In this document: piece by piece, positions 36,022 to 57,254 of the stretch
Position numbering within the stretch: the stretch's first letter is position 1
Layout: each line of letters starts with the position of its first letter
NCBI GenBank assembly: GCA_040772385.1
Contig: JAXGYF010000001.1
Coordinates: forward strand, 5,048,545 to 5,112,544
Length of the DNA: 64,000 nucleotides
Reading direction: 5' to 3'
Source: Candidatus Vecturithrix sp.
GTDB lineage: Bacteria; Moduliflexota; Moduliflexia; Moduliflexales; Moduliflexaceae
Position numbers and translations under genes: made by a program
The notes under the pieces: generated by a model
Database searches by the model: none
What the model saw: the letters and a program-made list of their open reading frames with translations, nothing else
Told to the model about the DNA's origin: nothing

Positions 36022-37008
36022 TTATTTATCGAGCGGACTCTTGACCGCGAGTGCGCCTGTTTGCATGACATGCGTGTAGATCATGGTGGTTGATACCTCT
36101 TCATGTCCGAGTAACTCCTGGACGATATGGATGTCATAGCCGTCTTCCAGCAGATGCGTGGCAAAACTGTGGCGGAACGCATGGCAGGTGACGCGTTTGG
36201 AAAGACCTGCGGCGCGGGCAGCCTGTTTGACAGCGCGCTGGAATCCTTCCCCGCTGGCATGATCGCGATAGGCCTTTCCGGATTGGGGATCGGTCGAAAG
36301 GGTTGCTGAGGGAAATACGTATTGCCAGATCCAGGCGGTTTCGGCGTGAGGATATTTTCGGGCCAGAGCAAAGGGCAAAGGCGTCCTGCCATGGCCAGCT
36401 TTCAGGTCATCTTCATGTAAGCGTTTGACCCTGGCAAGGTGATGCTGCAAAGGTTCTTGTAACACATCCGGCAGCATAGTGCGTCGGTCTTTCATCCCTT
36501 TACCGGAGCGGACGGTGATCTCACGCCGGGCAAAATCGAGGTCCTTGATGCGTAAGCACAGACATTCCATCATACGCAAACCGCTGCCATACAGCACCTG
36601 AGCCATGAGTTGATAGGTGCTTGAAAGCTGGTTGAGCACCCGTTGCACCTCTTCTCTGGTCAAGACGGTCGGAATATAGCTGGACTCTTTGGCTCGCTGA
36701 ACATGAATTTTGCCGGGCAGATCGATATTCAGGACTTTGCGATAGAGCAGAATGAGCGCGCAGAGCGCCTGACGCTGGGTCGTCGCCGTGACATGGCGTT
36801 TTACAGCTAAATGAGTGAGAAAGGCCTCGATCTCTGTTGTCCTCATCGTTGCCGGATGACGATAGCCATGAAAGCGTAGATATTGACGAATCCAGTCGAG
36901 ATACACTTCCTCCGTCCGCGGCGAATAGTGCTTGAAACGTATGGTTTTCCGGACTTGATCCAGCAGTTTGTTCAGTTCATCTGTTGATAACGTTCGTGTG
37001 CGATTCAT
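36022..37008 (-). CDS. intI: Integron integrase (IntI, tyrosine recombinase with the integron-specific additional domain)
   Basis: The IntI-specific insertion [24 protein letters not shown] aligns, by recall, to IntI1 [20 protein letters not shown]. Catalytic motifs [39 protein letters not shown] and a C-terminal AVKSPLD are present. Confidence 0.85.
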
Positions 37009-37215
37009 AAGAAACTACAAGGATTTCTCATAAGAAAAGGATTTCATTCAATCGTTCCAGAATCACAACAACGAATTCGTTCGTTTCTCAATTTGTTGTT
37101 GTGCTGGACAAGATTTCCTGGTGATCAATCGCCAGTCTCACAGCGGAAGGACGCTGAAGCGCCCTCCGGAATTCAGCAACGGGTTTCAACCTGCTTCAGC
37201 TTTGAGATCGGTCAT
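37008..37215. repeat. Inter-intI spacer with a partial family B repeat (37008-37045), hairpin CACAACAACGAATTCGTTCG...GTTGTTGTG, and a family A repeat (37120-37215)
   Basis: Direct sequence comparison with the other copies of families A and B. Confidence 0.6.
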
Positions 37216-37269
37216 TGGGTTGGATAGGCTTCCAGTAAGAAATTCTTGGCATTTCCTGACATCCACCAG

Positions 37270-38253
37270 TCAGCCTCTCCCATCCAGCGGACTTTTTATT
37301 TGTTGTCCGATCTTGTTCAACACATGCGAATAGATCATTGTGGTTTCCACATCCTTATGGCCTAACAGTTCCTGGACTGTTCGGATATCATAGCCGTCTT
37401 CCAGGAGATGCGTGGCAAAGCTGTGGCGCAGGGTACGACAATCGGCCGGTTTTGTGACCCCGGCAATATTTGCTGCTTCCTTGACCGCGCGTTGGAGCGT
37501 TGACTCATCGAGATGATGTCGCCGGGTTATGCCTGAGCGGGGATCCGCAGAGAGCTTACTGGCCGGGAAGACATATTGCCAGTTCCAATTTTTGTTGTCC
37601 GATTGATATTGCTGGGCCAGAATTGGCGGCAGGTAGACCGTGCCGCAGCCTTGCTTCAGATCGTATTCATGCAAAGCTCTGTCATAGCTCAGTTGCAACT
37701 TGATCAGCGGTTCCAGGCTGTGAGGCAGCACGGTGACATGATCTTCGTGTCCCTCGATGGTTCGTACCTGAATCTGGCTCTGCTTGAAATTCAGGTCATT
37801 CACGCGAAGTCGGAGACATTCCAGTACCTGGAGCCCGGCGCCATAGAGGAGGCGAATTGGAAGCTGATAGGCCGGAACGACCGCATTCAGGATGCGGTAC
37901 ACCTCATCTTTGGAGAGGATGTTTGGGAGATGCTGAGGGCATTTAGCGTACAAACGGTTGAGGTGTTCGGCGGTCTCTTCCATCTGAAGCACCTCGCGAT
38001 ACAAAAAACTCAGGGCACTCAGGGCTTGATTTTGGGTTGAGGCAGCCACGCCATCGTTGGCGGCCAGGTGAGTTAGAAAGGTCTTCACTTCTGCCACGCC
38101 CATATTTTGCGGATGCCGCTTCTCATGAAACAGAATAAAGCGTCGAATCCACTGAATGTAGGTCTTTTCGGTCCGTTTGGCGTACTCCAGCGTTTGGAGG
38201 AGATCGCTGACCTGATCAAGCAATTTTTTTTGCTGAGGCGGGTGGAGTGCCAT
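37270..38253 (-). CDS. intI: Integron integrase (second IntI paralog, tandem with the first)
   Basis: Carries the same additional domain ([25 protein letters not shown]) and catalytic region ([37 protein letters not shown]...IKSPLDG). The ORF track extends to 38322; the Met at 38253 gives a typical IntI length. Confidence 0.8.
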
Positions 38254-38473
38254 GGTATTCTTTCCCCCTACATCAAGGTTCTTTAGTAGAATTTCACCAG
38301 GACATGCCTTTTTGCTTGACAAAAATTGAAAAAACCCGAAGATTTTTTTACACCTGCATAACTACAAGAACAGAGGAATACGTAAGAATTTTCAGTGGAG
38401 ATGTTTTTGTCAAGTATTTTCTTCCGGGAAACTCTCTTTTCGTGTATGAACGCGAGGGGGGGGCATCAGAGTG

Positions 38474-38849
38474 TATGAAAACCCGATCGACATTGAAGCG
38501 AGGGCAACGAGGCACGCTCAAACTGGCTCAGCACTATGGCGACCAGTTATTATATGTGCGGTACCGGTATGATCCGGTTCGGAAGAAACGTTTAAAAACC
38601 GTTGAACTGATTATTGAGGAAACTGATTGGGAGCCTGCTGAACAGTTTGCGCCGGATCAGATTGTTGGGGTTCAGGTTGCCATGGAAGAGACCGCTCTTC
38701 AGAAAGCGATTAGAAAGGCCGGAGGGGTCTGGAACCGACGTCGGAAAGTGTGGGAGGTTCGATACGATCGAGTGTGTGAGTTAGATTTGGAAACTCGAAT
38801 GGTTGCCGAAGTTGAAGAGATGTATGCAGCGGTGCAGGGGGTTGAGTAG
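38474..38849 (+). CDS. Hypothetical protein, first ORF downstream of the intI upstream region (possible cassette)
   Basis: An ORF with no recognisable domains. The start at the MKTRSTLKRGQRG Met is inferred, and the track ORF begins earlier at 38247. Confidence 0.3.
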
Positions 38850-38924: not shown

Positions 38925-39100
38925 GAAATGTTTCGTATATACGAAACAAGTTTATTATATGCGAAACATGTTGCGTATATAATAAACCGGAGCACATGGC
39001 TGGCGGAAAAGTTTCGTATATACGTAACTTTTTTTGTGTCGTATATACGTAACAAATTTCGTATATACGTAACATGTTACGTATATACGAAACGGTTTCG
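38925..39100. repeat. Array of ~6 copies of a perfect 16-bp palindrome TTTCGTATATACGAAA (variants GTTACGTATATACGTAAC, TGTCGTATATACGTAAC) within ~180 bp
   Basis: Copies at about 38931, 38962 (degenerate), 39011, 39037, 39056 and 39077, with irregular 5-15-bp spacing, lying immediately left of the IS91-like element end. Confidence 0.8.
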
Positions 39101-39266
39101 GCCGCAAGTACGCAGCCTAATTCCTGTTGAACAAAGCCGCAGGGCGGCAGAAGAGTTTCGTGCTCCTCCCCACCATTTTTCTCTTGCCATGATCTGAACA
39201 GGTGTCATCCTCCTCCATGATGTATTCATCCTGCGTATGAACCTCATTCATCATGGAGGAGATACG

Positions 39267-40133
39267 ATGACCGCTCTGAGACACCGTTTCATTGAAGACC
39301 TGCAATTGCAGGGGAAGTCCGACCGGACGCAACAGGCCTACGTCCGCGCCGTGCGGATGCTGGCCGACCACTTCCACACCCCGCCGGATCAGCTCACCGA
39401 CGAGCAGATTCGGCAGTATTTCCTGTACGTCAAGAACACTCGACACTGGTCGTTTTCGACCATGAAACAGGCCCTGTGCGCTATCAAGACCTTGTATACG
39501 CAGACGCTGCACCGGGACTGGGGCATTCTGGACGTGATTCGTCCGCCGACATCGCAGACGCTGCCCGATGTCCTGACCCACGACGAGGTGCAGCGGCTGC
39601 TTCAGGCGGTGCGTCTGCCGCACTATCGGCTGTGCTTGACCACGATCTACTCGTGCGGATTACGCCTGACCGAAGGCGCCCAACTCCGGGTCACGGACAT
39701 TGACAGTGCCCGGATGCTCGTGCATGTGCGCCACGGGAAAGGGGACAAAGACCGCTATGTGCCGTTACCCCAACGTACCCTGGAGCTGCTGCGCCAGTAT
39801 TGGCTGACGCACCGCCATCCGGTGTGGCTGTTTCCGGCTGGCGGCGCTGGGCCGGTGCAGCGCCAGCCTGCTTCCGCCCCTCTCTCCGTCAGCACGCTGC
39901 AAAAAGCCTGTCGTCTCGCGAAGCAGGAGGCCGGGATCACCAAAACCGTCTCGGTCCACAGTCTGCGCCATGCCTATGCCACCCATCTGCTGGAAGCCGG
40001 CGTGAGCCTGCGCATGATTCAAGCCTATCTCGGACATACCTCTCCCCAGACCACGGCTCGTTACACGCATCTGACCTCCCAGGCGCAGACCAGCGCGGGC
40101 GTCGTCATTGACACCCTGATGCAGGATCTCTAA
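39267..40133 (+). CDS. Tyrosine recombinase (phage-integrase family) encoded upstream of the IS91-family transposase
   Basis: C-terminal catalytic region HSLRHAYATHLLEAGVSLRMIQAYLGHTSPQTTARYTHL. Such upstream recombinase genes occur in a subset of IS91-family members. Confidence 0.8.
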   Translation: MTALRHRFIEDLQLQGKSDRTQQAYVRAVRMLADHFHTPPDQLTDEQIRQYFLYVKNTRHWSFSTMKQALCAIKTLYTQTLHRDWGILDVIRPPTSQTLPDVLTHDEVQRLLQAVRLPHYRLCLTTIYSCGLRLTEGAQLRVTDIDSARMLVHVRHGKGDKDRYVPLPQRTLELLRQYWLTHRHPVWLFPAGGAGPVQRQPASAPLSVSTLQKACRLAKQEAGITKTVSVHSLRHAYATHLLEAGVSLRMIQAYLGHTSPQTTARYTHLTSQAQTSAGVVIDTLMQDL

Positions 40134-40154
40134 GCCCCTCATCGGAGGCCCGAG

Positions 40155-41291
40155 ATGCTGGAATTGGCTGACATCTTCCAGGCCTACGGTCCCGCGTATG
40201 AGGCGAAATACGGCGACCGCATGCCGCCCAGCCATCACGACGCGCTGTGGGACATCGCCCACTGCCGCACGCCCCTGATGGGGGGCGAGGTGTTCTGGTG
40301 TGCCCAGTGCCAGGACTTTGTCTACAGTTATCATTCCTGCGGCAACCGCCATTGTCCCAAATGCGGCGGTGACCGGGCCGACGCCTGGCGCGACGCCCAA
40401 CTCAAGAAGCTGCTCCCCGTGCCGTATTTTCTCGTGACGTTCACTCTGCCCCATTCCCTCAACGCCATCGCCCGTTCCCATCAACACGTGATCGATGACC
40501 TGCTCTTCAAAACGTCCGCGGATGCACTCCACACGCTCGCCTTGAATCCGGAGTGGCTCGGCGGCACGATTGGCATGGTGGGCGTCCTCCACACCTGGGA
40601 TCGGGCGATGGGCTATCACGTGCATGTCCATTATCTTGTGCCGGCCGGGGGGATCGATCCGGGCACCGGGGCCTGGATCCCCTCCCATCCGAAATTTCTC
40701 GTGCCCGCCTCGGCCCTGCGCGAGGTCTTCCGGGCCAAATTTCGCGACGCCCTGTACGCCGCCGATTCAGCCCTCTTCGCCCAGGTCCCGCCGGAGACCT
40801 GGAGCAAACAGTGGGTCGTGCACTGCAAGGCCGTCGGAGACGGACGCACGGCCCTGAAATACCTGGCCCCCTACGTCGCCCGCGTGGCCCTCTCGAATCG
40901 GCGACTGGTGACACTCGATGAGGGACAGGTCACGTTCCGCTATAAGCCCCACACGAGGCCCTGGACGACCATGACGCTCGACGTGATGAGCTTCATGCAG
41001 CGCTTCTTACAACACGTCCTGCCCAAAGGCTTCCAGAAAATCCGGTACACCGGCTTCCTGCACCCCAACGCCCGCACCATGTTCACGGCCCTACAAGCGC
41101 AGCTCGTCGCAGAGGCCGCCTCCGAGCGTCTGCCAGAGGTGCTGGCCGCCACGTTCGGCCTGGAGATCGGCAACGGGACGCCCAACGACGACCCGCCTGA
41201 CGACCCCCCGCGCGGTTGTCCGCACTGCGGTGGTCCGCTGGCCTTCGTCGGTCGCTTCCCTCGCGCCCCCCATCGACGAGGTCCTCCATGA
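40155..41291 (+). CDS. IS91-family transposase (N-terminal Zn-binding domain plus Y2 HUH transposase domain)
   Basis: CxxC...CxxC zinc-binding region (WCAQCQD...CGNRHCPKCG), an HUH-like HVHVHYLVP, and the catalytic Tyr region KYLAPYVARVALSNRRL. Confidence 0.8.
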   Translation: MLELADIFQAYGPAYEAKYGDRMPPSHHDALWDIAHCRTPLMGGEVFWCAQCQDFVYSYHSCGNRHCPKCGGDRADAWRDAQLKKLLPVPYFLVTFTLPHSLNAIARSHQHVIDDLLFKTSADALHTLALNPEWLGGTIGMVGVLHTWDRAMGYHVHVHYLVPAGGIDPGTGAWIPSHPKFLVPASALREVFRAKFRDALYAADSALFAQVPPETWSKQWVVHCKAVGDGRTALKYLAPYVARVALSNRRLVTLDEGQVTFRYKPHTRPWTTMTLDVMSFMQRFLQHVLPKGFQKIRYTGFLHPNARTMFTALQAQLVAEAASERLPEVLAATFGLEIGNGTPNDDPPDDPPRGCPHCGGPLAFVGRFPRAPHRRGPP

Positions 41292-41708
41292 CACGACGAA
41301 TACAACAGCGGACGATTGCCCCACCACGACGGGTTCGGAAAGTCTCCATTTTTCGGCGCACCGTCCCCGTCTGCCCATCGCCCAATGATCGCCTCATCTC
41401 TGTCCGATCACCAGGTGTTCACGGCCTCAACCTTCCATCATGGAGGTACTTGTCGCGAACAACGAAGAGGCATCTTCCCCCATCTGTGCCCCGCACACCG
41501 TCTCCACACTCACGTCATTTCGGAGCAAAATCCAAATAAGACCTTCTGAGAATTTTTTCCTTGACATGATGGGAAATCGCCCCCATATAACGAGGGGTGG
41601 GCTTGTTCAACAGAGATTATGTGCCGGATACTCGTCACATGAATCTTTAATCCGTTAGAACCTCCTTATAATAAGAGAAATTTACTCAATAAATCATAAG
41701 ATTATGTT

Positions 41709-44114
41709 ATGAATATACCACCAAGATTACAACATAGAATTGTTGATTTTCTTATATCTCTTCCGAGTATTCATGATAATAATAGTCAACGATCATTAAT
41801 CTACCAAGCCGGTCTAGATACAGAGTTACAAGGTCAGATTTCATTTGATAAACCAGCTATGCAGTTTGCCCTCTTCCTTGTGTCAACCTTAATAAAATAT
41901 GGTAAACTTAGTGATGGGCGATACGCTATTGAAGCTATTTTGGAGGCAGCAAAGAATTTTGTAGGACAAGATAGGAAAATATATTGTGAAACATTGATAA
42001 ATGAACTGCATGATTATACAATTGAAAAAGCTGATACACCATTATCAGATGATATCCCATTTTTAAAAAAGAGAAATTCTATAGTAGATGCTAAATACGA
42101 TCCCAAATTAGTCACAGAAATAAGGATAACTCCACCTGACTTGACTAATCAACAACAGTTACAAAATACTGGTGATAATTCTTTTGAGATAGATGCTTTT
42201 AAATCAAAGCTCTTAGATTATGAATTGAGTCAGTTAGGCTTACCTTCCTTGATTTTCCATCGGAACAATTTAGAAAGTGAGGGATTGCAGCTTATTCGTG
42301 AGGGTATTCTGCCTGTCATTTTGATTCAAGGTCTCCCTGGCTATGGAAAGACTGTATTGCTTGGTGAACTTGCCAAAAAGATTGGCCATGAATTTCAATA
42401 TACTTTGGTGTTAAATTTTTCTGGTCCAGCTTCTATAGAACCTTCTTATGTCATCGAAGAAATAAATACATTTCTCAATAAACTTGGCCGTGGTATTGAT
42501 ACAGAAATACTCAGAAAACAGAGTACTCAACGCTCTCTTCAAATTCTTATTCCTCAGATGATGGATCTACATCTTCTTCTACTTTTAGACGCAGTAGATG
42601 GTGTACCTCCTGGACAAATTGAAACATTTTTGCAATTCTTAACGGCAACCCCTAAAAATCGACTCATTATGACCGCTCGTTATAGAATCGTAAATAGGTC
42701 GAATGCTCATATATTACATGTGCCTCCATTATCGAACAAAGAAACTGCCGATTTTGTTGAACAGTATACTAAATCAATGAAGATCGGGGTTAATATAAAG
42801 GATTTATTGGAAAAACTCCCCAACAACATTAAAGAACATCCTCAAGCATTAAGCATGATTTTAGCAAATTTAGTTGATATTCCATTTGAACTTTTAGTAA
42901 TGCAAAGCTTCCATGACGATACATTAATCCTTCAACAGTTGGCTAAAAACATCCTTCTTGCTATAGATAAGGAAGTGTTGACTTGTTTAGTATTTATGAT
43001 AGTATTAGATGATCTTGACTTTATGGATACCCTTAAAATTTTAGAAATAAATCCTCCTAAAGGTCTGGTGAATTCTATTAATCTGTTATTGGAAAAGTCT
43101 TTGATTTATCGCCATGAAAATTCTTATCGTGTGCCTTCAATTATACATGAAGGGGTATTAAATTTAATTCCTGATATTGCAGAGACTATTCTAAATCAAA
43201 TAGGTTATATCTTAGAATTAAAAATCAACAGAATGCATTTACAAAGGGTATCAGATCATTTTGATAATCTTATTCCCATAGTTGTTACTATTATTCATCA
43301 TTTTTATCAAATGCGATCTTATGAATGGGTAACTAAACTTGTTATTGATGAATTCTTAGAATTTATCAATATGCGGGGTTTTTGGAAAGAATATTGGCTC
43401 ATTTTACGAATATCTTTTGATGCTGCAAAAAGAATAAACCAATTAAATATCTTTTCCAAAATAGGGTTTAGGATTGCTCGTAAATCTTTACAAATCCACG
43501 ATATTGATACTGGGAGTCAGGTATTAAGTGATGTGGAACGAGTTATTGGTGTTGATGGTAATACAATGGAGCATGCAGAATTTTGGAGTCATAAAGCTCT
43601 TTTCACCGAATTAACTGGATATACGGAGAATGCCAAAGAAGAACTACTGAAAAGTCTCCAAATTCGAGAATCGCTCTATGATGCTGAAGGTATTGCTGTT
43701 ATCCAAAAACTTTTAGGTAATATTCATTTGCGTTTAAAAGAATCAGATATAGCACGTCAATATTATGAGTCAGCATTGATATCTATCAATGAAAATACTT
43801 CCCAATTCAAACATATTATCGAAGTGGAAACGAGTCTCGCTTTGTGTGATCTGATAGATAATAAATTGGAATCGGCTGAATCCACACTTAGAAAAGTTAT
43901 TCAAAATTGTAAGAGTAAAGGCTATTTAGCTGGACTATCAAGAGCTTACTACAATTTGGCTTTAGTACTTGATCGTCAAAAACGTGTTGCTGAAGCTTTT
44001 TATTATGCTGAAATTGCTTCTAAGGAAGCTTTAAAAACAGATAAAGATATTATACTCGGTTCAGGAATACTTATGTGGCGATTAAAAAATTTAAAAGGAA
44101 CCTCTTGTAAATAA
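41709..44114 (+). CDS. STAND-class NTPase (NB-ARC-like P-loop) with an N-terminal alpha-helical adaptor/effector-associated-like domain and C-terminal TPR-like repeats
   Basis: Walker A LIQGLPGYGKTVLLGELAKK, Walker B HLLLLLDAVDG, a helical C-terminal half with TPR-like periodicity, and a 100-aa N-terminal helical domain. AT-rich at ~36% GC. Confidence 0.65.
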   Translation: MNIPPRLQHRIVDFLISLPSIHDNNSQRSLIYQAGLDTELQGQISFDKPAMQFALFLVSTLIKYGKLSDGRYAIEAILEAAKNFVGQDRKIYCETLINELHDYTIEKADTPLSDDIPFLKKRNSIVDAKYDPKLVTEIRITPPDLTNQQQLQNTGDNSFEIDAFKSKLLDYELSQLGLPSLIFHRNNLESEGLQLIREGILPVILIQGLPGYGKTVLLGELAKKIGHEFQYTLVLNFSGPASIEPSYVIEEINTFLNKLGRGIDTEILRKQSTQRSLQILIPQMMDLHLLLLLDAVDGVPPGQIETFLQFLTATPKNRLIMTARYRIVNRSNAHILHVPPLSNKETADFVEQYTKSMKIGVNIKDLLEKLPNNIKEHPQALSMILANLVDIPFELLVMQSFHDDTLILQQLAKNILLAIDKEVLTCLVFMIVLDDLDFMDTLKILEINPPKGLVNSINLLLEKSLIYRHENSYRVPSIIHEGVLNLIPDIAETILNQIGYILELKINRMHLQRVSDHFDNLIPIVVTIIHHFYQMRSYEWVTKLVIDEFLEFINMRGFWKEYWLILRISFDAAKRINQLNIFSKIGFRIARKSLQIHDIDTGSQVLSDVERVIGVDGNTMEHAEFWSHKALFTELTGYTENAKEELLKSLQIRESLYDAEGIAVIQKLLGNIHLRLKESDIARQYYESALISINENTSQFKHIIEVETSLALCDLIDNKLESAESTLRKVIQNCKSKGYLAGLSRAYYNLALVLDRQKRVAEAFYYAEIASKEALKTDKDIILGSGILMWRLKNLKGTSCK

Positions 44115-44123
44115 GGAGTATGT

Positions 44124-44342
44124 ATGTGGTTTCAAGAAAGTAGTGAGATTATCACTCGATTATTCAGTTTATCAATTTTGTACTATGAGGCTAGTGGTGA
44201 CGCTAATTGTAATTGGCGAGAATTGGACAAGCAACTCACAATAGAAAAAGAATTTCTTTTATCAAATGGTCATGATTTGATAGGAATAGATGCTATTTTT
44301 GAAGAAGTCAACATGATTATTGGGTTTATCCTAAGTAAATAA
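44124..44342 (+). CDS. Small hypothetical protein (72 aa) immediately downstream of the STAND NTPase
   Basis: An ORF tightly coupled to the STAND gene, starting 10 nt after its stop with a GGAG RBS. Confidence 0.35.
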   Translation: MWFQESSEIITRLFSLSILYYEASGDANCNWRELDKQLTIEKEFLLSNGHDLIGIDAIFEEVNMIIGFILSK

Positions 44343-44449
44343 ACTATAGCATTATTCATTCCCGTTGATCGTAACCCTGACAGGGTTCCAAACCCTGTCA
44401 GGGTTGTAAATGATCAATGTCGATGCATAATGCTATATTACGCTGAGAT

Positions 44450-46405
44450 ATGTGGAAAGAAGAGACGATAAATAAGCTTAAAATTCTTTTAGATGTTGCG
44501 AGAAGGGAGGTTCCTTATTATACAAGTATATTACCTCCAGTATCCATTCAATTACCGGATGATATTTTTGGTTACCTTAAAAATTTTCCTCTCCTTTCTC
44601 GTCAAATTTTGCAAACTCAAAAAGCACTATTATGTTCTTCACATGGAGATATATCTTCTTGGCGCAAAATACGAACCACAGGGACTACAGGTGAACCGGT
44701 AGAAGTTATTTTAAATAAAGAGACTTGGACACTTGAAAGTGAGTTGTTTGCCTCACATATAGATCGTTATTTACAACGCCTTGATTGGCATCAAAAAAAG
44801 ATATTTTATTTAAATCTACATCCTAGTGCAAGCTCCCGAACTCTTCCTTCTAAATGGCATGATGAAGCACAAATGATAAAATGGAATCTAATTCGAATTT
44901 GGCAATTATCTGATGAAAAATTTATGAATTCCATTGAATGCCTTAATGAAAGTATTATTACTACCATGGCTTCTGTCGTAGAACTCATTTGCTCTCGCAT
45001 ATTAAAATCAGGCATCATAAACAAAATTCATCCTTCCCTTATTGTTTTATCAGGAGAAACTATCCTTCCAGAGACAAGAATGCTTATAAACGAGGTGTTT
45101 AAATGTCCTGTTACCTCTCTCTATACAATGGCTGAGGTTGGAATTATTGGATCAGAACAAATAGATCCAAATGTTTATCAAGTAGAAGAATCTGCTGTAA
45201 TAGTAGAAATTGTTGACGAAAACGGTAATCGAGTTCCTCAAGGAATTGAAGGAGAGATTATTATTACCCCTTTAAACAATGTGGTAATGCCACTTATTCG
45301 GTATCGTACTGGAGATCGGGGTTATTGGGTTGACATTGATTCGTCTCCTCCAATTTTTAGATTAGTTGAGGCTCGCCGTTCCTATCACTTGATTACAGAA
45401 AATAATGCTTCGATGAACGTTGTTAGATTTACAAAGATGTTAGCTTCTCTCAATGTTGATCGTTATCGGATGGATCAGAAACAGGATGGGACTGTTATTT
45501 TCTCTTATTATTCTCAAAAGAGCGCATTTAGTGAAATGGACTATTCCCTTGTTAAATCAGTAATTCGTGGTGCCTTTGGTCCTGAAGTCAGGATAGAGTT
45601 TTATCAGGTTGAAGATCGTAACACTCTTAGTCAAGCTCCAGATCAGATTCAACCATCACGAGAATATATTACTTCTCCTAACGCGGAACCATTAGACCCG
45701 AGTTTAGTAAAATTAGCTTCTTGGCTTCGTCAACAATTATTTGATGAGATCCAGATAGATGCCGCTATTCTTACGGGCTCTGCCCTTGATCATAGGACAA
45801 CAACTCGTTTTAGCGATATTGACTTAGTAGTTTTAGTTCAGAATAATCCAATGGACTCTTATTGGATTAAGGTATCACGTAACCTTATATCTCATATTCC
45901 ACAGCTTTCCATAAATTTTGACTATATACGTGGTCTTTCATATCGCTCACCATTGCTTGCTTGTCGTTTATTATGTGAACAAATCCCAGTAATTGGTAAA
46001 GTAGATGAATATATTCTGCCATGGCCTAAACTGGAAAATTTACGACTTCAAGGATTATATTGGTCTCAAGATACTATCGGAACACTTTGGTTAAGGCTTG
46101 TAAATTTAAAAGTATTAAGTATGGATCCAATACGTGAGGCATGGATAGCTACAAAGCTTATTCTGGAGGCTCTTCGTTACCGTTATCTTGTTCGAAGTGA
46201 GCACGAGACATCATCTGTTTGCATATTAAATAAGCTAGAGAAAGATATTGAAATTCCGGATTTATGGAAAAGAGACTTATTTGACATGTTTAATGTTGCA
46301 AGAGAACATCTCCCTCCACCTCTCATTAATAGTAATATAGTTGAACATTATTTACAATTAGCTTTGTCATATATTCGTTTTATTCAGATTGACTTAATGC
46401 GATGA
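44450..46405 (+). CDS. Fusion protein: PaaK/F390-synthetase-like adenylate-forming enzyme (N-terminal ~430 aa) plus minimal Pol-beta-type nucleotidyltransferase domain (possibly followed by a HEPN-like helical region)
   Basis: ANL motifs IRTTGTTGEPVEV and IRYRTGDRGYW. A C-terminal GSALDHRTTTRFSDIDLVVLV minimal nucleotidyltransferase signature. The tail carries an RYLVRSEH R-x(4-6)-H-like motif. Confidence 0.6.
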   Translation: MWKEETINKLKILLDVARREVPYYTSILPPVSIQLPDDIFGYLKNFPLLSRQILQTQKALLCSSHGDISSWRKIRTTGTTGEPVEVILNKETWTLESELFASHIDRYLQRLDWHQKKIFYLNLHPSASSRTLPSKWHDEAQMIKWNLIRIWQLSDEKFMNSIECLNESIITTMASVVELICSRILKSGIINKIHPSLIVLSGETILPETRMLINEVFKCPVTSLYTMAEVGIIGSEQIDPNVYQVEESAVIVEIVDENGNRVPQGIEGEIIITPLNNVVMPLIRYRTGDRGYWVDIDSSPPIFRLVEARRSYHLITENNASMNVVRFTKMLASLNVDRYRMDQKQDGTVIFSYYSQKSAFSEMDYSLVKSVIRGAFGPEVRIEFYQVEDRNTLSQAPDQIQPSREYITSPNAEPLDPSLVKLASWLRQQLFDEIQIDAAILTGSALDHRTTTRFSDIDLVVLVQNNPMDSYWIKVSRNLISHIPQLSINFDYIRGLSYRSPLLACRLLCEQIPVIGKVDEYILPWPKLENLRLQGLYWSQDTIGTLWLRLVNLKVLSMDPIREAWIATKLILEALRYRYLVRSEHETSSVCILNKLEKDIEIPDLWKRDLFDMFNVAREHLPPPLINSNIVEHYLQLALSYIRFIQIDLMR

Positions 46406-46422
46406 GGTAAAGCAGAGAAAGG

Positions 46423-46534
46423 TTCTAACGATCTGCTTGCACCGGAGCGCAAAGGGCGGGCGGAAAAATGGGTTGCTGAATGTCGGGCTTGGGTGCCGCC
46501 CGCCCTTTCCGCCCGGTGAAGCAGGGCGTTCGGC
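46423..46534 (+). other. attC-like cassette recombination site (~110 bp): TTCTAAC ... GGGCGGGCGG ... CCGCCCGCCC ... GCAGGGCGTTCGGCG
   Basis: An imperfect inverted repeat with an RYYYAAC-like 5' end and a GTTCGGC 3' end. It sits immediately after the stop of the 44450-46405 gene. The same architecture recurs at 55512-55621, 59898-60008 and 61102-61215, and the 3' end alone matches at 63986-63992. Confidence 0.55.
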
Positions 46535-46564
46535 GTGTACGCTTTGTAGAAAAGGAACAAATCT

Positions 46565-47389
46565 ATGGATGCTAATAATGAAAAAATACAAGGCGAAGTT
46601 AAATGGTATGATCCTCATAAAGGATATGGGGTGCTTGTTGATGATAATCAAAATGAATATTTTATTCACCATACAAATCTAAGCTTTGAACAAAAACAAC
46701 TATTTGCCTTTGAGCGAGTCGCATTTCTCTTAAAACCACGACAACATGGTAAAGAAGGTCTTGAAGCATATGAGATAGATATACTCCCTCCATCCCCTGT
46801 CGAAGAAAACGATGAGCACTCGATTCGGGTTCAGGATATTCTACGCAAAATGCAAGGGTGGTTTAGAATGCGTGCTTCATTTCAACGAGAATATGCTGAA
46901 CAAAAAGCTAAATGGAATGTTTGGGATGATATGGCTGATGAATATATCGAATTTCAAGAACCATTGATACATATTCAGAATACATTTAATTTAGAAATGA
47001 TTCCTGCCCATCCTGACATAATCGCTAAAGCCTTTACTCCTGGGAATGATATGCCAGTTGGGGCGTTTACACGAGCAGTAGATATTGATGATTATGAAAG
47101 ACGTAGAGGAGTTTACGCCTGTATGGGAAATGATGAATTGATTCTTATTGTTCATGCGTTCTATAAAAGTCGTAAGACTCGCATAGATTGCTGGAGGGCT
47201 AAAATATTTCGTCGCAGAGATGGAAAGATTATCTCAATGCCTGATAAAGGAACATACACAGGACATTTCAAAAGAAATATCTGGAGAGAGCGGTTTGATT
47301 ATTTTTTACAGGATATTCAGCATATGATGGCAATAGCGACACGAAACAGAATGAGTACAAACGATATGGATATAAATGATCTTTTTTAA
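46565..47389 (+). CDS. Cold-shock-domain protein with a C-terminal extension of unknown function (274 aa)
   Basis: The N-terminal GEVKWYDPHKGYGVLVDDNQNEYFIHHTNL matches CspA-type RNP1/RNP2 motifs. The remaining ~200 aa are unassigned. Confidence 0.6.
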   Translation: MDANNEKIQGEVKWYDPHKGYGVLVDDNQNEYFIHHTNLSFEQKQLFAFERVAFLLKPRQHGKEGLEAYEIDILPPSPVEENDEHSIRVQDILRKMQGWFRMRASFQREYAEQKAKWNVWDDMADEYIEFQEPLIHIQNTFNLEMIPAHPDIIAKAFTPGNDMPVGAFTRAVDIDDYERRRGVYACMGNDELILIVHAFYKSRKTRIDCWRAKIFRRRDGKIISMPDKGTYTGHFKRNIWRERFDYFLQDIQHMMAIATRNRMSTNDMDINDLF

Positions 47390-47556
47390 GAATTTTGAAT
47401 TATGGATACTGCTCGCTTTATTATACGATGCAAAATATGTCCACCTGTGCAAAGCTAAATTTATAAAAATTTATAGACAAAGATCATCTGGGTATGAGAA
47501 TACGGTTGAGACGGGAAAATTGTCAAGAAGAATCCTAACGCCAGAGGAGGTCTCTC

Positions 47557-49088
47557 ATGAACGCCTATAAAATTCGTATCAATATTGAAATCACGCCAAC
47601 CACCGACACACCACATTCCTGCCCTACTCACCGTGACGATGGGGGGCTTGAGGTCGTCATTCCAGAAACGGAGGCGAGCAGCATCGATCTCTGTGAGCGA
47701 CGCCTTCTGGAGACCAGCCATCCGGCGATTCGTGACGCCCTGGCCCGCCATTTGAGTGCCTTGTCAAAAAAAAAGCCTTGGCCCACGGAACTGACACAAT
47801 GATTCGTGACAAGGCGTATCCATATTGGGTTGATGGGGAAGTTGGTCGCTTCGAATTTACGACCCATCAGGTGTGTGATGGCGAGCGGACGCTGTATGAC
47901 ACCGCCTCCGAGTTCTTTCCTCAACGAGGACGATGGGAATGGTACAAGACAAGCGGGTTCAAAGAAGTGGCCTATATCCATGGTGTGACGGAAGCCTCCT
48001 ACCGGAAAACCAGTCGGTGGCTCAATCGTGTGCGCGATCAGTCGGAGCGCGAGGGCACCCCGGCGCGCAGTCTTCAAGCCCAGGCGGAAGGGGAAGGCAT
48101 CAGACTGTGAGAGACGCTTGACCGCAAAGCGAGTCAAATTTTGGCGATCTCTCATGTCTCCGAGTCCAATGGCCGAATGAGTGTGCCGGACGTCCTGCCC
48201 CCGTCCTCGTCGCCAACGATCCCCCAGGTTCGAGTGGACGCGGCGATTGAGAGGTGTCAGCACCGCATGAAGACGCCTCAGAACCTCTGGAGCAATCCAG
48301 TGCCTTACGAAATGCCGGAACTGACCGTGAACCTGTCGGTGGATGATGTAGGCGTGAAACGGCAAAAGGCTGAACGGGGCTCGTCAGCGCCCCCTCCATC
48401 TCCCCCTGGTCAAGGGAACAAGACACGCACGTATGCTCACACGACCGTGGTGCATCTTGAGCGACAAGGACAGACCTATGTGCTGGCAGGCCATGGCATG
48501 ACCGCTGTCTTTCGCGTGGTGCTGGCATTTTTACTCTCAAATAATCTGAAGGCGTGCCATCTTCAATTTTTTACCGATGGGTATGGGGTGTTACATGAGG
48601 CCATTCGTCGCAGCTTTTCGTGGTGTTCGACGATGGTCATTGTGGTGGATTGGTATCATGTTCTCAGGAAGTGCCAGGTGCAACTCAGTCTGGCGTTCAC
48701 AGGGCGAGAGCGTCGCAATGCCGTCTTGAAGGAGGTATTGCCTCTCTTGTGGCATGGACTGGTTGATCACGCCATTCGCGTTCTCACCTCACTCGATATG
48801 AAGCAGGTCAAAGATCCCAACGCTCTCGCCAGATTAGTCGGCTATTTTGAGCGTAATCGTGCGCATATCCCCTGTTATGCCGTCAGGAAAGAACTTGGCT
48901 TACGAAATTCCAGTCAGATTGGCGAAAAAATGAATGACTTGCTGGTGTCAGAGCGTCAAAAGCATCACGGGATGAGTTGGTCGATTGCCGGCTCTGTTGG
49001 CCTGGCAGCTCTTGCTGCCCTGGGAAGGAACAAGGAATATGCCCAATGGTTTGACGAAGGGGATATTCCGTTTAAGCTTGTCGCATAG
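47557..49088 (+). pseudogene. IS transposase remnant split over three reading frames (47557-47802, 47778-48110, 48141-49088); family uncertain, possibly ISKra4/ISAzo13-like
   Basis: Three consecutive ORFs in different frames, GC-rich at ~58% within an AT-rich array. The family assignment is from recall and is weak. Confidence 0.4.
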
Positions 49089-49091
49089 GCA

Positions 49092-49281
49092 TACAGGAGC
49101 TTTGCACAGGTGGAAATTTATCTTTGTGAAGCAACTTACGGAGAAATTCTTGAAGAAGGAAAAGATGGATTAATTGCTCTTCGTGAGAATCAAAAATTAT
49201 TCATATTAGGCAAGCCTGGTTCGGGTAAAACCACTTTTCTCAAATATATCGTGATAGAGGCAATTGATAACTTACCATTCG
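49092..49281 (+). pseudogene. N-terminal fragment of a NACHT/STAND NTPase gene (Walker A FILGKPGSGKTTFLKYI), truncated on both sides by IS insertions
   Basis: Manual translation gives ...EILEEGKDGLIALRENQKLFILGKPGSGKTTFLKYIVIEAIDNLPFA, stopping at the IS1634-like element boundary. Confidence 0.55.
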
Positions 49282-51300
49282 CTTAATAAAATCTAATAAT
49301 GGTGAATTTCAAGATTTTGATACAAAACATCATCCAATCCTAATCTGTTCAAGATCTCTTTTTGGAGTTCTGATAGAGGCGTAAGATGACGGATTATGTG
49401 ATCCTTCAGATGAATAATTGTCAGGGTAATCCCCTCAAATGCCTTCAGCAACCGTTCGCTGGTCGGCCTGTTAGTGGTCTTTCGTATATTCTCAGGATGC
49501 AATCCTGGGAAAGCCTTCTTTTCCCGCTCTAATGAACGTCTTACAACAAACTCGATACGCGTTAACGTTCGAACTCCCAATGTCAATAAGTGGTTTAAGC
49601 CTTTGACTTGATCCGGTTCCGTCACATACATCGGAGCAATATTCAAACGGTTTTTGAGACGATCGAAGAGCCGTTCAATTCGACATTCTTGCCGGTATAA
49701 TCGTACCGCATCTTCCAAACATCACCTGTCACCGGACGTATCAGTCACGTAGGCTCTCCACCCGAACGGCTCCTTGACGTGCTCAATCTTCGCGGCATCC
49801 CGGGTAACAGCCGTGATGTGATAGCGAATGCTTTCGACCACCTCTTGTTGACGATTCGCCCCTCCTCGGCCTCGGCCCCTGTATTTCGTTGTACGCTCAA
49901 CTTCGCGTTCATACTCAACACGAAGCAGACCGTCAACCCGATGCTGCTTCTCAATCGCCTCAATGGCAGCCTTCAAACTCTGCTCATCGGTTATCTGTTT
50001 TTTCCCTCGGCCACGCGGCGGGGTAAGGGCATACAGTTTCTGCTCGGCCTGGTCCAAACGGGTATCGAACCCACGTTCCTGCTGCCCGGCATGATTGAAG
50101 GACTTGACGACCAACACCCGTTCAGTCCATTCAAGCGTCTGGCCGTTGACCACCCCGGAGCACCGACGTTCAACCTCATACCCTGCGGCCACGATGGCCT
50201 CTTCACCGTTGGCATCTGTGACCACCACAGGTTGAAGGGCTTTCTCCTTTTCCAGGGCAATACCGTCTCGAACCCACTCTGCCATCACTTCCGGCGTCTT
50301 CCCGGTTTGAGGCAGAGGGCAAAGATAATGACCGCCCAGCCCTTTAATATGCAAACGCGTCTCAATGGCACTGAGCTTGCAATCGCCAACATAGAGAACG
50401 CCCTGTCTCTCAAGGACGGCATGAATGCGATTAATCACCGGAACATATAAGCCGTCATCCGCACGCTCGCCTGACACGACATCGGTCGCTAGCGGCATAC
50501 CAAGCGGATCAAGTGCCCCTGTCATGAGCTTGATGTGAGGTAAACTCGGGTCGTCTTTACTATGACCGAATTGAAAAAGACCTCCCTCCCTCACCTCATG
50601 GTAGCCCGAAACCGTCGTCGCGTCACACCTAACGACATCCGTTTCTAAATCATAGGCACGGATGCTCTTCTGATTTAGCTCGGCCTCGATCGGTTCCCAA
50701 TACGACGGCTTGCTCAAGTTCTTCAGCAAAATACCCAGGCGGTCATCCGTAAAATCAAGCTCCCTGACAGTTTGGCCACTCACCGTGCTCAACGTCTGCT
50801 CCAGGTTCTTCACATACTGCCTGACGACGACTTTTCGATGATCGCCCTCAGAAAGAATATAGGCTAACCAGATCACCGCTGTCCAGCCCCAGCTTAATTC
50901 ACGCTGTTTCCAATGGACCGGAATATGGTTGTCGAGAACCTCAGGTAAGCCCATCTGAACCAGCACTCCAATGATTAACACAATATCATCGACCCGCTCT
51001 GAGCGAATCTCGAAGTCTTTTCTTGACTCAACGTGCTCTTTTGTTAACATACGCCTCTATACCTCCTGTGATTTTTTTCTATCATCGCCTCACAGAGGGG
51101 CATATTGCGCAAATTAAATTTTACCTGTCAAAATAAAGCGAATGATGAGTGATAATAATATTGATAAGAAGTTAACTCAAATTCCTATTTTTGTGCCTTT
51201 AAGAAGCTTTGCTGAGTCAGGCTTATCCCTATTTGAATTCATTGTTCGCCAGTTTAAAATTTGTAATTTCCCTGATGCTGGCCCTTTTATTGAAACGATC
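49282..51300 (-). mobile_element. IS1634/IS4-like insertion sequence inserted in the NACHT gene; its transposase reading frame carries an in-frame TGA
   Basis: ORFs 49722-51050 and 49293-49718 are in the same frame, separated by the TGA at 49722-49724. Together they give a ~585-aa DDE transposase-like protein (C-terminal ...GWRAYVTD and ...YRQECRIERLFDRLK). The element boundaries are approximate. Confidence 0.55.
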
Positions 51301-52274
51301 TTGAGAAAAAGAGGTAATTTTAAGCTAACACCTCAGGTTTTCGCTCGACTGAAAGAGAACAATTTACCTAAGAAATATCTGAGTAAATTAAAAAATTTGG
51401 AAAATAAAGAATTCTCTACTGAAGAAGAGCTTTTTACTAATGTCCAAACATTTGTAGATGATAATAAAATTTTTGAAGAATATAAGGCATTATTTTTGCG
51501 ATACGCAAAAAACGAAAAGTGGAAAACTATTATTTTATGTGATGGATTAGATGAAGTTCCTAAAAAAGAAGACAAACGACAGAAAATTATTCAAGAATTA
51601 ATTGATTTCAGTAATGAATTTGAGGAAAGTCAGTTTGTTATCACATGTCGTATTGCTGCCTCAGAATATCATTTTGAAGGTTTTACCTATGTTGAAATTG
51701 CAGATTTTGATGAAAAACAAATTGCCTCTTTTATTAGGAATTGGTTTATGAATAGTTCTTCATTGGCGAACAATTTTCTCGAAGAGTTTGGGAAAATTGG
51801 TAATGAACGACTTCGTGATCTTGCTAGAACCCCTCTGATTCTTACACTTTTATGTATTTCTTATGAGAACACTCTTGAACTACCAATTCGACGCTCAGAA
51901 ATTTATAAAGAGGCTCTTGATGCATTATTGGTGAGATGGAGTGCTACTCGGGGAATTAAACGAGATGAAATATATAACCATTTATCTCTTGGCAGAAAAC
52001 AACAAATGTTTGCCCGTATTGCTGCGGAGACTTTCCAAAAGAGTCAGTATCTCATTAAACAAGAAGTTCTGGAAGAAAAAATTATTAAGTATTTAAGAAA
52101 TTTACCGCAAGTAAGTATGGATGAAGAGATTAATGGAACAGCAATTCTTAAAGCTATTGAATCCCAACATGGGATTTTTGTTGAGAGAGCCCAGGGCATT
52201 TACTCATTTTCTCATCTAACCTTTCAAGAATATTATGCCGCAAAATATATTTATGAACACCTTGATAAAGATAT
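51142..52274 (+). pseudogene. C-terminal fragment of the NACHT NTPase gene (Walker B ILCDGLDEV, TCR sensor, TPLILTLLC), truncated at its 3' side by IS91-family copy 2
   Basis: The 51142-52341 ORF lacks a Walker A motif. Its last residues (...LNKAAGRQKSFASLPTIFLLP) are encoded by the IS91-like left end. Confidence 0.6.
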
Positions 52275-52415
52275 GTTGAACAAAGCCGCAGGGCGGCAGA
52301 AGAGTTTCGCGTCCCTCCCCACCATTTTTCTCTTGCCATGATCTGAGGCGGTGTCATCCTGCTCCATGATGTATTCATGAGATCTCTGAACCTCTTTCAT
52401 CATGGAGGCCCTCCT

Positions 52416-53282
52416 ATGACCGCTCTCAGACACCGATTCATCGAAGACCTGCAGTTGCAAGGCACGTCTGACCGGACGCAACAGGCGTACGTCCGCGCGG
52501 TGCGGATGCTCGCCGAACACTTTCACACCCCGCCGGATCAGCTCACGGACGAGCAGATTCGGCAGTATGTCCTGTACGTCAAAAACACCCGACACTGGTC
52601 GTGTTCGACCATGAAACAGGCCCTCTGCGCCATCAAAACCTTCTACACCCAGACCGTACACCGGGAGTGGGGTCTGCTGGACGTGATTCGCCCGCCAAAA
52701 TCGCAGACCCTGCCCGATGTCCTGACCCACGACGAGGCGCAACGACTGCTTCAGGCGGTGCGCCTGCCGCACTACCGGCTGTGCTTGACGACCATCTACT
52801 CGTGTGGCTTGCGCCTGACTGAAGGCGCCCAGCTCCGGGTGACAGACATCGACAGCGCCCGGATGCTCGTGCATGTCCGCCGCGGCAAAGGGGACAAAGA
52901 CCGGTATGTGCCCCTCCCACAGCGCACCCTGGAACTCCTGCGCCAGTATTGGCTCACGCACCGCCATCCAATCTGGCTCTTTCCGGCCGGTGGGGCCGGC
53001 CCGGTGCAGCGTCACCCCGCCTCGACGCCCATCTCCGTGAGCACGCTGCAAAAAGCCTGTCGCCTCGCGAAGCAGGAGGCGGGCATCACCACACGGGTGT
53101 CGGTCCACAGTCTGCGCCATGCCTACGCCACCCATCTGCTGGAAGCCGGGGTCAGCCTGCGGATGATTCAAGCGTATTTGGGACATACGTCGCCCCAAAT
53201 CACGGCCCGTTACACCCATCTCACCTCCCAGGCCCAGACCAGCGCGGGCGCCGTCATTGACGAGCTGATGCAGGATCTGTAA
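52416..53282 (+). CDS. Tyrosine recombinase of IS91-family copy 2
   Basis: Paralog of the 39267-40133 gene. Confidence 0.8.
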   Translation: MTALRHRFIEDLQLQGTSDRTQQAYVRAVRMLAEHFHTPPDQLTDEQIRQYVLYVKNTRHWSCSTMKQALCAIKTFYTQTVHREWGLLDVIRPPKSQTLPDVLTHDEAQRLLQAVRLPHYRLCLTTIYSCGLRLTEGAQLRVTDIDSARMLVHVRRGKGDKDRYVPLPQRTLELLRQYWLTHRHPIWLFPAGGAGPVQRHPASTPISVSTLQKACRLAKQEAGITTRVSVHSLRHAYATHLLEAGVSLRMIQAYLGHTSPQITARYTHLTSQAQTSAGAVIDELMQDL

Positions 53283-53309
53283 CCCTCCACACATCTTAGG
53301 AGGCAACGG

Positions 53310-54446: not shown

Positions 54447-54829
54447 CACCACGAGCCCGACACCTCACCGTCATCTTCCCACAACCGGTTCGGAAAATCC
54501 TCTTTTTCCGGCGCATCGTCCTCGTCTGCCCATCGCCCGGAAATCGCCTCATGGCGGTGCGAATACACCATACTCACGGCCTCGATATTCCCTTCTGGCG
54601 GCACTCGCCGCGCGCATGCAAGGGGCACATTCCGCCATTCCCGAGGATTTTTCAGCCTCCACAGCCTGGTCATTTCGGAGCAAAATCCAAAGAACACATT
54701 CTCCATATTTTTTCCTTGACATGTCGGCAGATCGCCCCCATACAAAGAGGGGTGGGCTTGTTCAACAGAGATTATGTGCCGGATTCTCGTCACATGAATC
54801 TTTAATCCGTTAGCAGGGAAAAGGTGAGA

Positions 54830-55497: not shown

Positions 55498-55511
55498 TGA
55501 GCGAAGAGCAG

Positions 55512-56087: not shown

Positions 56088-56109
56088 AACTTCTATGAGG
56101 GTGAATACA

Positions 56110-56988: not shown

Positions 56989-57022
56989 ACTTCCTTATAT
57001 GTTAAACATATTCAATCCATAA

Positions 57023-57233: not shown

Positions 57234-57254
57234 CATAATAATATTCATATAATT

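Follow-up and report, generated by a model that had tools for sequence, protein, structure and literature searches.

An integron-borne trio of STAND NTPase, small protein, and PaaK-nucleotidyltransferase genes as a candidate NLR-like conflict module in Candidatus Vecturithrix

A 64,000-nt stretch of the genome of Candidatus Vecturithrix sp. (assembly GCA_040772385.1, contig JAXGYF010000001.1, positions 5,048,545 to 5,112,544; hereafter the window, in whose coordinates positions are given) was found to carry three adjacent genes, designated here g1, g2, and g3, that encode a STAND (signal transduction ATPase with numerous domains) NTPase, a small conserved protein, and a fusion of a PaaK-type adenylate-forming enzyme with a nucleotidyltransferase (NTase). 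Gene content points to an anaerobic source organism. An earlier note on this DNA, made from the sequence alone, had proposed a novel conflict-type module around the STAND NTPase and the fusion enzyme, and our analysis established that such a module is real and conserved. The trio very probably constitutes a co-functional conflict module, apparently undescribed and of immune type, that combines an ATPase sensor resembling NLR (nucleotide-binding leucine-rich repeat) proteins, a small protein with a proposed docking role, and an enzyme whose two halves both use ATP. The fuller reading, in which g1-g2-g3 (41709-46405) and the attC site at 46418-46539 make up a single integron cassette bearing an NLR-like (STAND) system of conflict or defence with three components, we regard as evenly balanced between right and wrong.

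Extent of the gene block

All four co-directional open reading frames (ORFs) listed in the earlier note, the trio and a further gene, g4, were found exactly where it had placed them. The AT-rich character ascribed to the block was likewise borne out, with a G+C content of 0.34 for 41659-46417 and 0.37 for the g4 stretch, compared to 0.48 in the host-like left part of the window and 0.61 in the adjoining IS91 copy. The note had taken the four genes as a single module ending at an attC-like site at 47389, and this did not hold up. A strong attC site at 46418-46539 separates g3 from g4, and no attC was detected after g4; by the logic of integrons, g1-g2-g3 would therefore be one cassette and g4 the next, and only g1 to g3 belong together. 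At three genes and ~4.8 kb, the g1-g3 cassette contrasts with the usual single promoterless ORF. The principal features of the region are as follows.

g1, 41709-44114, + strand: STAND NTPase, 801 aa
g2, 44124-44342, + strand: small conserved protein, 72 aa
Hairpin in the g2-g3 spacer, 44345-44437: ~93 nt, by RNA fold
g3, 44450-46405, + strand: PaaK-nucleotidyltransferase fusion, 651 aa
attC site that closes the g1-g2-g3 cassette, 46418-46539, + strand: covariance model, 120 bits
g4, 46565-47389, + strand: cold-shock domain (CSD) fusion, 274 aa, almost certainly a separate cassette gene
IS91-family copy upstream, 39126-41658, + strand: tyrosine recombinase and Y2 transposase

A STAND NTPase with an interchangeable N terminus

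Examination of the g1 product revealed the central P-loop NTPase and C-terminal tetratricopeptide repeat (TPR) region of the STAND class, in keeping with what the earlier note had read from the motifs. The NB-ARC/NACHT-like ATPase occupies residues ~195-384 (nt 42291-42860; Pfam NB-ARC 8e-7 and NACHT 2.5e-6, both above the gathering score), with Walker A as GLPGYGKT (residues 208-215, nt 42330-42353) and Walker B as LLLLDAVD (residues 290-297, nt 42576-42599). The TPR sensor region spans residues ~600-770 (nt ~43506-44018) and matched TPR_12 (4.3e-9) as well as several other TPR families in Pfam. The N-terminal helical domain, described in the note as adaptor-like, proved to be the effector-associated domain (EAD) EAD8 of Pfam, which covers residues 7-100 (nt 41727-42008) with an E value of 1.3e-22 over 94 of 96 model positions. 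An N-terminal enzymatic effector is absent from g1, which has EAD8 in its place, whereas orthologs bear TIR, SIR2, purine nucleoside phosphorylase (PNP), or cyclase domains.

A word-indexed search with g1 returned g1 alone, and an exhaustive HMMER search was therefore used to collect relatives of its STAND core. This search yielded ~50 orthologs (representatives at E<=1e-30), none of which carried EAD8. Among 38 representatives of the clade, the N termini recognized by Pfam were TIR_2 (25/38), Guanylate_cyc (2/38), PNP_UDP_1 (2/38), and SIR2_2 (1/38), and the catalytic Glu of the TIR domain was kept in all eight aligned N termini. Where the STAND gene adjoins a homolog of g3 and has a complete N terminus, that terminus was TIR_2 in every case except locus L102, in which the STAND protein begins with DUF676 and a cyclase domain and is still followed by a PaaK-NTase gene. 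The two closest STAND orthologs of g1, P0124 and P0135, have short (~90 aa) coiled-coil-like N termini that are neither TIR nor EAD8, and which may be other adaptor-type variants.

The EAD8 segment has a different set of relatives. The HMMER search found more than 100 proteins related to g1 through EAD8 only, with 45-63% identity over residues 1-105. The partner domains of the close EAD8 relatives are very diverse, including TIR in 10 of 75 and other STAND/TPR proteins, and amount to 104 Pfam families in all. EAD8 has been placed among the EADs that "primarily recruit other effectors" (PMC7159879), and EAD1, 2, 7, and 8 are known to replace TIR and other effectors at STAND N termini (Kaur et al.; PMC7159879, PMC8195603). 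Within its TIR-STAND family, the copy in the window is thus the adaptor-type variant, and any effector that it has is encoded elsewhere. The N terminus of the STAND protein is the only variable element, with the STAND core, TPR region, g2, and g3 forming the constant part.

A small conserved protein and the spacer behind it

The 72-aa ORF that the note had counted as a member of the module turned out to be a genuine and conserved third gene. ORFs homologous to g2, 69-165 aa in length, occupy the same position between the STAND and PaaK-NTase genes in 10 other loci. They share the motif F-x-x-[SAT]-x-G-[HYL]-D-[LIVF]-x(5-6)-F, represented in g2 by F-L-L-S-N-G-H-D-L...F (SNGHD at nt 44262-44276), in which only G49 and D51 are invariant. 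In two unrelated members, L085/P0158 from Saccharopolyspora and L102/P0131, the C terminus of the STAND protein itself carries the motif as a fusion, and in P0027 the motif is possibly fused to the N terminus of the g3-type enzyme. We propose a docking role for g2, at the C-terminal end of the STAND protein. The g2 protein had no match in Pfam, NCBIfam, PADLOC, or the PDB. A weak ankyrin-like match of the small protein (E 0.013; Pfam/PDB) was taken as chance. An acyl carrier protein was ruled out by the lack of a conserved Ser in a DSL-type motif, as was a ubiquitin-like protein by the lack of a conserved C-terminal Gly.

The spacer between g2 and g3 is filled by a near-perfect inverted repeat of ~93 nt (44345-44437), the predicted fold of which has an energy of -53.8 kcal/mol (z = -9.95 versus shuffles). 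Its core, AACCCTGWCAGGGTT, occurs once in the window, and the hairpin is absent from the orthologous loci, in which g2 and g3 lie at most tens of bases apart. No Rfam family matched the hairpin, and a search of the whole 38.3-49.2 kb region gave only spurious sub-threshold matches of miRNA type on palindromes. The hairpin could be an insertion resembling a miniature inverted-repeat transposable element, or an RNA processing or attenuation structure. Scans for promoters and terminators produced counts no better than those in shuffled sequence.

A two-headed ATP-using enzyme

The first ~395 residues of the g3 product (nt 44450-45634) form a complete PaaK-type adenylate-forming (ANL) enzyme, with the motifs TTGTTGEP at 44675-44698 and YRTGDRG at 45302-45322. 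A linker leads to a minimal nucleotidyltransferase (MNT)-type domain followed by a helical domain of HEPN fold (residues ~418-651, nt 45701-46402), the NTase motifs being TGSALD at 45773-45790 and SDIDL at 45812-45826. Residues 1-295 matched PaaK-type ligases of NCBIfam (DVU_1553 family 7e-31, PaaK 5e-8), and residues 433-508 gave a weak match to a Pol-beta-type nucleotidyltransferase. The scores fell below the equivalog cut-offs, at 31.8 bits versus 646 for TIGR02155 and 107 versus 300 for DVU_1553, and no paa genes lie near g3 in the window or near its homologs in the inspected loci.

A word-indexed search returned ~50 full-length homologs of g3, mostly 620-660 aa long, with 33-52% identity and at least 87% coverage, from several phyla; their sources were metagenomes and genomes of Streptomyces, Micromonospora, and Saccharopolyspora. 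Below this family there is a sharp drop to ordinary PaaK-like proteins of 440-480 aa with ~26% identity. The joining of an adenylating domain to an MNT domain in one gene, as claimed in the earlier note, is therefore borne out; the note had raised the possibility of two genes run together, and this was ruled out by the single uninterrupted ORF, free of any stop or frameshift, and by the ~50 collinear homologs.

An alignment of 39 members revealed that invariant residues of the ligase half include G78 (in the TTGTTGEP loop), E229, T273, D289, and R309, as well as K144 and K329, and that those of the transferase half include G443, S444, S455, D456, and D458. The MNT signature GS-x(9-13)-DxD is present in g3. 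In most members, the active sites of both halves, each of them ATP-using, appear intact. Pfam Adenyl_transf matched 3 of 17 family members at E 0.023 or weaker.

The AlphaFold model of g3 was confident (pLDDT 90.4, pTM 0.87). When residues 1-~395 were searched with Foldseek, the matches were to PaaK1 (2y27, E 2.5e-18), to BT_0428, and to the CoA-independent condensing enzymes NatL2, AjiA1, and ClxA; profile matches to 9s3l and 4r1l were obtained at about 1e-25. A separate model of the C-terminal half (residues 418-651) reached a pLDDT of 94.5 and was matched to AadA with a Foldseek E of 5e-5 and a TM score of 0.60-0.64. On these models, the C-terminal half is predicted to be an MNT domain fused to a HEPN-fold domain, and its NTase appears structurally closest to adenylyltransferases of the ANT(3'')(9)/AadA type and to those that AMPylate proteins. 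The Rx4-6H motif of HEPN RNases is not conserved in the family, which keeps only R576 and Y577, and an RNase toxin was ruled out on that ground. By analogy with aminoglycoside nucleotidyltransferase (ANT) enzymes, the helical domain is probably a substrate-binding lid rather than an RNase. The earlier note had seen in g3 the MNT partner of HEPN-MNT toxin modules: the MNT assignment stood, refined to an MNT with its own fused HEPN-fold domain lacking the RNase motif.

Conservation of the trio

Fourteen independent loci were inspected for gene order (L001, L002 with its duplicate L003, L084-L088, L091-L093, L095, the P0032 contig, L101, and L102), L102 having been reached from the STAND side. 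In all 14, a STAND ortholog of the g1 type lies directly upstream of the PaaK-NTase gene and matches g1 from residue ~170 to 800, with 27-40% identity over about 620 residues; the STAND, small-ORF, and PaaK-NTase genes often overlap by a few bases. The earlier note would have been contradicted had these genes never occurred together in other genomes, and they were found together at every locus inspected. As a negative control, we used 80 generic PaaK-family loci from a scan of a genome collection with the motif MPLIRYxTGD, none with the fusion. No STAND, TIR, or NTase match was found near any of these 80.

The neighbours of the related loci include integrases, a toxin-antitoxin (TA) pair, Cas1, a TIR-TPR protein, DUF4062, and Mu-like genes. 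Neither biosynthetic genes nor a conserved membrane protein or signal-receptor effector were conserved around the trio in the inspected loci. Among the genes beside the orthologous trios (L101, 7835-9022; L084, 10021-10776; L085, 1-58; and the P0032 contig), one for an adenosine deaminase overlaps the PaaK-NTase gene at its end, and others encode a metallo-beta-lactamase-fold hydrolase resembling Apyc1, Cas1, and one protein each of TIR-TPR and DUF4062 type, in keeping with defence-island locations.

A possible enzymatic input to the STAND receptor

Because the STAND core, the TPR region, g2, and g3 remain constant while only the N-terminal output is swapped, we assigned g2 and g3 to the input or regulatory side. 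We place g3 there, rather than among the effectors, only tentatively. More doubtful still is the fuller proposal that g3 and g2 are the enzymatic input layer of an NLR-like receptor. Instead of contacting a phage protein directly, the TPR region would then read a covalent AMP or acyl mark, or an enzyme-made ligand, that signals infection through its presence or its loss, in the manner of a guard with an enzymatic bait, and interchangeable outputs (TIR, SIR2, PNP, cyclase, or EAD8-recruited effectors) would be mounted on the same input. In our main reading of the trio, g2 would dock g3 onto the TPR end of g1, and g3, at the cost of ATP, would place a covalent AMP or acyl mark and keep it there, or else produce a ligand. 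Possible targets are g2, the STAND protein, and an infection-derived molecule, and the state of the mark or ligand would gate STAND oligomerisation. Upon activation, the EAD8 domains would recruit EAD8-tagged effectors, such as EAD8-TIR proteins, encoded elsewhere in the genome. Any one specific chemistry for g3 is, taken singly, improbable. Regulatory NTases have precedents: MntA AMPylates HepT (PMC13000451), and HalB of the Hailong system is a negative regulator whose product keeps the effector off (PMC13434031).

Several observations weigh against this reading or against the defence role that underlies it. The defence activity of the trio is drawn solely from domain content and context, and the step from a constant part to an input role is one of logic rather than experiment. 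None of the PADLOC v2 models matched the trio, domain-level matches being all that was obtained with the window proteins and the TIR-bearing orthologs alike, and a scan of IMG/VR found no copies borne by viruses or phages. The proposed trans effector was not seen, since tblastn found no second EAD8 protein within the window. In the small-protein family there is no invariant Tyr, Ser, or Lys to mark a modification target. No conserved C-terminal (A10-type) Lys could be recognized where the PaaK C-subdomain ends, K144 and K329 being located elsewhere, and the ligase chemistry may thus be atypical. Actinobacterial members of the g3 family have another residue in place of the third NTase carboxylate. 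Expression of this particular copy could, moreover, suffer from the IS91 element that ends 50 nt before it and from the 93-nt hairpin within the operon.

A different role for g3 would be that of an effector or second effector. The STAND protein would, via g2, activate the NTase and ligase, and growth arrest would follow from AMPylation or nucleotidylation of essential targets, whether of the host or of the phage (proteins, tRNA, or RNA 3' ends), as with AMPylators of the DrrA/GlnE type or NTase toxins. We consider this unlikely. Nearly all of the orthologous systems already have a catalytic effector on the STAND protein (TIR with its conserved Glu, SIR2, PNP, or cyclase), and a second, obligatory one would be unusual; the g2 motif, where fused, is found at the sensor (C-terminal) end of the STAND protein and not at the effector end; and g3 has no EAD8, so that it is not what the adaptor recruits. 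The note had viewed the adenylating enzyme and MNT domain as an effector or signalling step. Their link to the module stands, and an effector role is less likely than the regulatory or input side.

Rather less likely again is that g3 makes or tailors a nucleotide-derived second messenger, such as a modified TIR product or a conjugate resembling an acyl- or aminoacyl-adenylate, for downstream effectors in the manner of Thoeris or CBASS. Some PaaK-family enzymes condense acyl-adenylates without CoA, as the matches to NatL2, AjiA1, and ClxA recall, TIR is the commonest partner, and profiles of CBASS oligonucleotide cyclases matched the NTase region weakly (in PADLOC, g3 with E 0.04 and its homolog in L002 with 2e-4; in NCBIfam, CBASS_cyclase_b with 0.012). 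The structure of the NTase is nonetheless ANT/MNT-like and not CD-NTase-like (CdnE probability 0.63, E 0.07), and the operon has no conserved gene that could encode a signal-receptor effector. The enzyme is also kept where TIR gives way to cyclase, SIR2, PNP, or EAD8, and so cannot depend on a TIR product.

A non-immune role, with the STAND protein as an AfsR/MalT-like signal-transduction or transcription regulator of a PaaK-type biosynthetic or catabolic enzyme, is very unlikely. NB-ARC and TPR domains do occur in SARP/AfsR and MalT regulators (the AfsR match being weak), and the family has members in Streptomyces, Micromonospora, and Saccharopolyspora, but no DNA-binding domain is present, the N termini (TIR, SIR2, PNP, cyclase, or EAD8) are typical effectors or adaptors of conflict systems, the surroundings of the trio show no conserved paa or biosynthetic genes, and the locations are mobile or integron-associated.

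The fourth gene is a neighbouring cassette

The CspA-like domain that the earlier note had recognized in its fourth gene is present, as a CSD at residues 9-69 of g4 with a Pfam E of 1.7e-6, just above threshold; the membership of g4 in the module was not sustained. The remaining ~200 C-terminal residues had no match. Among 5.8 billion protein clusters, g4 had one homolog (49% identity, 241 aa), making it a near-orphan, and this homolog adjoins a RidA-like gene and one for a TPR/DUF4177 protein, neither a STAND nor a PaaK gene being present there. No homolog of g4 was found in the 18 related loci searched for one. Since an attC stands between g3 and g4, g4 is absent from the related loci, and its homolog lies in an unrelated context, we place g4 outside the module, and it is almost certainly an unrelated, neighbouring integron cassette. 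That g4 should be the nucleic-acid-binding component of a four-gene system is scarcely credible: it is co-directional with g1-g3, similarly AT-rich, and starts only 159 nt downstream of g3, and CSD effectors occur in some retron systems (the NCBIfam match of g4 to retron Se72 being weak, E 6.6e-4), but the attC that parts the two genes is high-scoring, and the homolog searches described above count against it.

The integron and its mobile elements

The integron cassette context put forward in the earlier note was confirmed by two tandem integron-integrase genes on the minus strand, 36022-37008 and 37270-38322, which scored 440 and 406 bits against TIGR02249 (cut-off 265). A duplicated intI is unusual, and the two genes share a 79%-identical stretch of 107 nt (repeat D10). 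The attC sites were scored with a covariance model built from the window's own attC family. This family consists of ~120-nt sites on the + strand, each just downstream of an ORF, with strong members at 46418, 55507, 59893, and 61097 (109-130 bits) and weak ones at 58856 and 63856. The sites form a long imperfect hairpin with the flanking cores CTAAC...GTTCGG, and compensatory changes were seen in 15 of 38 pairs, albeit from four copies only. These characteristics identify the hairpin sites as attC sites.

Both of the flanking IS91-family copies claimed in the note were found, at 39126-41658 and 52275-54813; they form a direct repeat with 87-89% identity and encode a tyrosine recombinase and a Y2 transposase (Pfam Y2_Tnp 6.6e-55, Zn_Tnp_IS91 5e-27). 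The first copy stops 50 nt before the g1 start codon and marks a boundary, not a part of the system. With this copy at its 5' side, the 5' junction of the cassette (a previous attC or attI) has been lost. Upstream, between an intI-proximal ORF (38247-38849, without a family match) and the left end of the IS91 copy, at least six palindromic units, TTTCGTATATACG(A/T)AAC, cluster at 38928-39095. They may be a binding-site array or a feature of the attI region.

Directly after g4 lies a GC-rich (0.53) insert at 47450-49100 with ORFs of 81 and 315 aa that have no Pfam match, probably another mobile element where the attC of g4 would be expected. A gene for a NACHT-type NTPase then follows in pieces (49110-49286 and 51142-52341), split by an IS4-like element (49293-51050) with DDE_Tnp_1/DUF4277 ORFs on the minus strand, and its 3' end abuts the second IS91 copy. 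The cassette array goes on from 55507 to 63992 with two nSTAND2/AAA-type NTPase ORFs (56074-56988 and 57216-58835), a NucS-C-like nuclease (60045-61094), and a 472-aa ORF without assignment (62039-63457). The integron is a reservoir of STAND-type conflict genes. Farther to the left, three tandem 63-nt GC-rich hairpin-like repeats lie at 23515-23703, with a fourth, dispersed copy at 29488-29550; other dispersed repeats, resembling repetitive extragenic palindromes and in direct and inverted orientation, were noted in the host-like part at 6602-6713, 20766-20877, 31778-31826, and 37116-37227.

Relation to known systems

The earlier note knew of no described system that combines a STAND NTPase with a PaaK-MNT fusion, and neither did we find one among the PADLOC models or in any searchable paper. 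The best PADLOC match of g1 was mad8 (E 0.025), with no Avs or NLR model. PaaK, CoA ligases, and adenylating enzymes are mentioned in neither of the EAD papers (PMC7159879, PMC8195603), nor in a 2026 survey of STAND proteins, nor in a 2025 survey of TIR systems, and MNT does not occur in the two EAD papers. The searchable literature, whose full-text coverage is incomplete, contained no description of the trio, and an earlier description is possible.

The g1 protein resembles Avs/AVAST, bNACHT, and TIR-NLR proteins in its plan of N-terminal output, central STAND P-loop ATPase (Walker A and B), and TPR sensor at the C terminus, in the modular swapping of N-terminal effectors within a clade, and in mobile or defence-rich locations. 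The described Avs and bNACHT systems are, however, essentially single-protein sensors, whereas the g1 clade is obligatorily tied to a small protein and a PaaK-NTase, and the window copy bears an adaptor (EAD8) and no effector. With the EAD-coupled NTP-dependent conflict systems (Kaur, Burroughs, Iyer, and Aravind 2020/2021), the trio shares the N-terminal EAD8 on a STAND NTPase and the same kind of swap; it differs in that a cognate EAD8-tagged effector is not within this window and that a PaaK/MNT partner does not feature in those papers.

The enzyme likewise departs from its nearest counterparts. In contrast to the type VII TA pair HepT/MntA and fused MNT-HEPN proteins, g3 has a HEPN fold without the conserved Rx4-6H motif, and its NTase is fused to a 400-aa PaaK-type enzyme in a STAND operon rather than forming part of a two-gene TA pair. 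The two-domain architecture of NTase and helical fold is common to g3 and the ANT aminoglycoside enzymes, but the g3 NTase is only 10-15% identical to ANT(3'')(9)/AadA, AAD(9), ANT(4'), DrrA, and GlnE and has no resistance-gene context. Relative to the PaaK ANL family (PaaK1/2, BT_0428, NatL2/AjiA1/ClxA, and F390 synthetase), g3 has the full fold of the N- and C-subdomains together with TTGTTGEP, YTxAE, YRTGD, and the hinge Arg; it is nevertheless ~15-20% identical to these enzymes, has no paa or biosynthetic context and no evident C-terminal catalytic Lys, and carries the fused NTase. Its similarity to HalB of Hailong (HalA/HalB) is at the fold level only, with no HalA-like channel and other partners.

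The STAND part consequently falls within the broad NLR-like/Avs-type class and the EAD-coupled systems, and the cassette context is ordinary; what we could not find elsewhere is the obligatory partnership with the PaaK-NTase and the small protein. The family of PaaK-NTases is small, at about 50 representatives.

Implications

Receptors of the STAND/NLR type have a central place in the innate immunity of bacteria, plants, and animals. To our knowledge, the bacterial STAND receptors characterised so far are single proteins that bind phage proteins directly. If the reading of the trio advanced here is true, a STAND clade that is always coupled to an ATP-consuming modifying enzyme and a small adaptor would represent a new regulatory principle, by covalent or ligand gating or by a new signal, and the enzymatic bait at the input layer would be a logic so far undescribed for prokaryotic STAND immunity. 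It would also provide the first biological role for a previously unnoticed family of PaaK-nucleotidyltransferase fusions. The exchange of EAD8 for TIR within one orthologous clade offers a clean natural case of an effector outsourced to a partner recruited in trans, and renders the EAD adaptor hypothesis directly testable.

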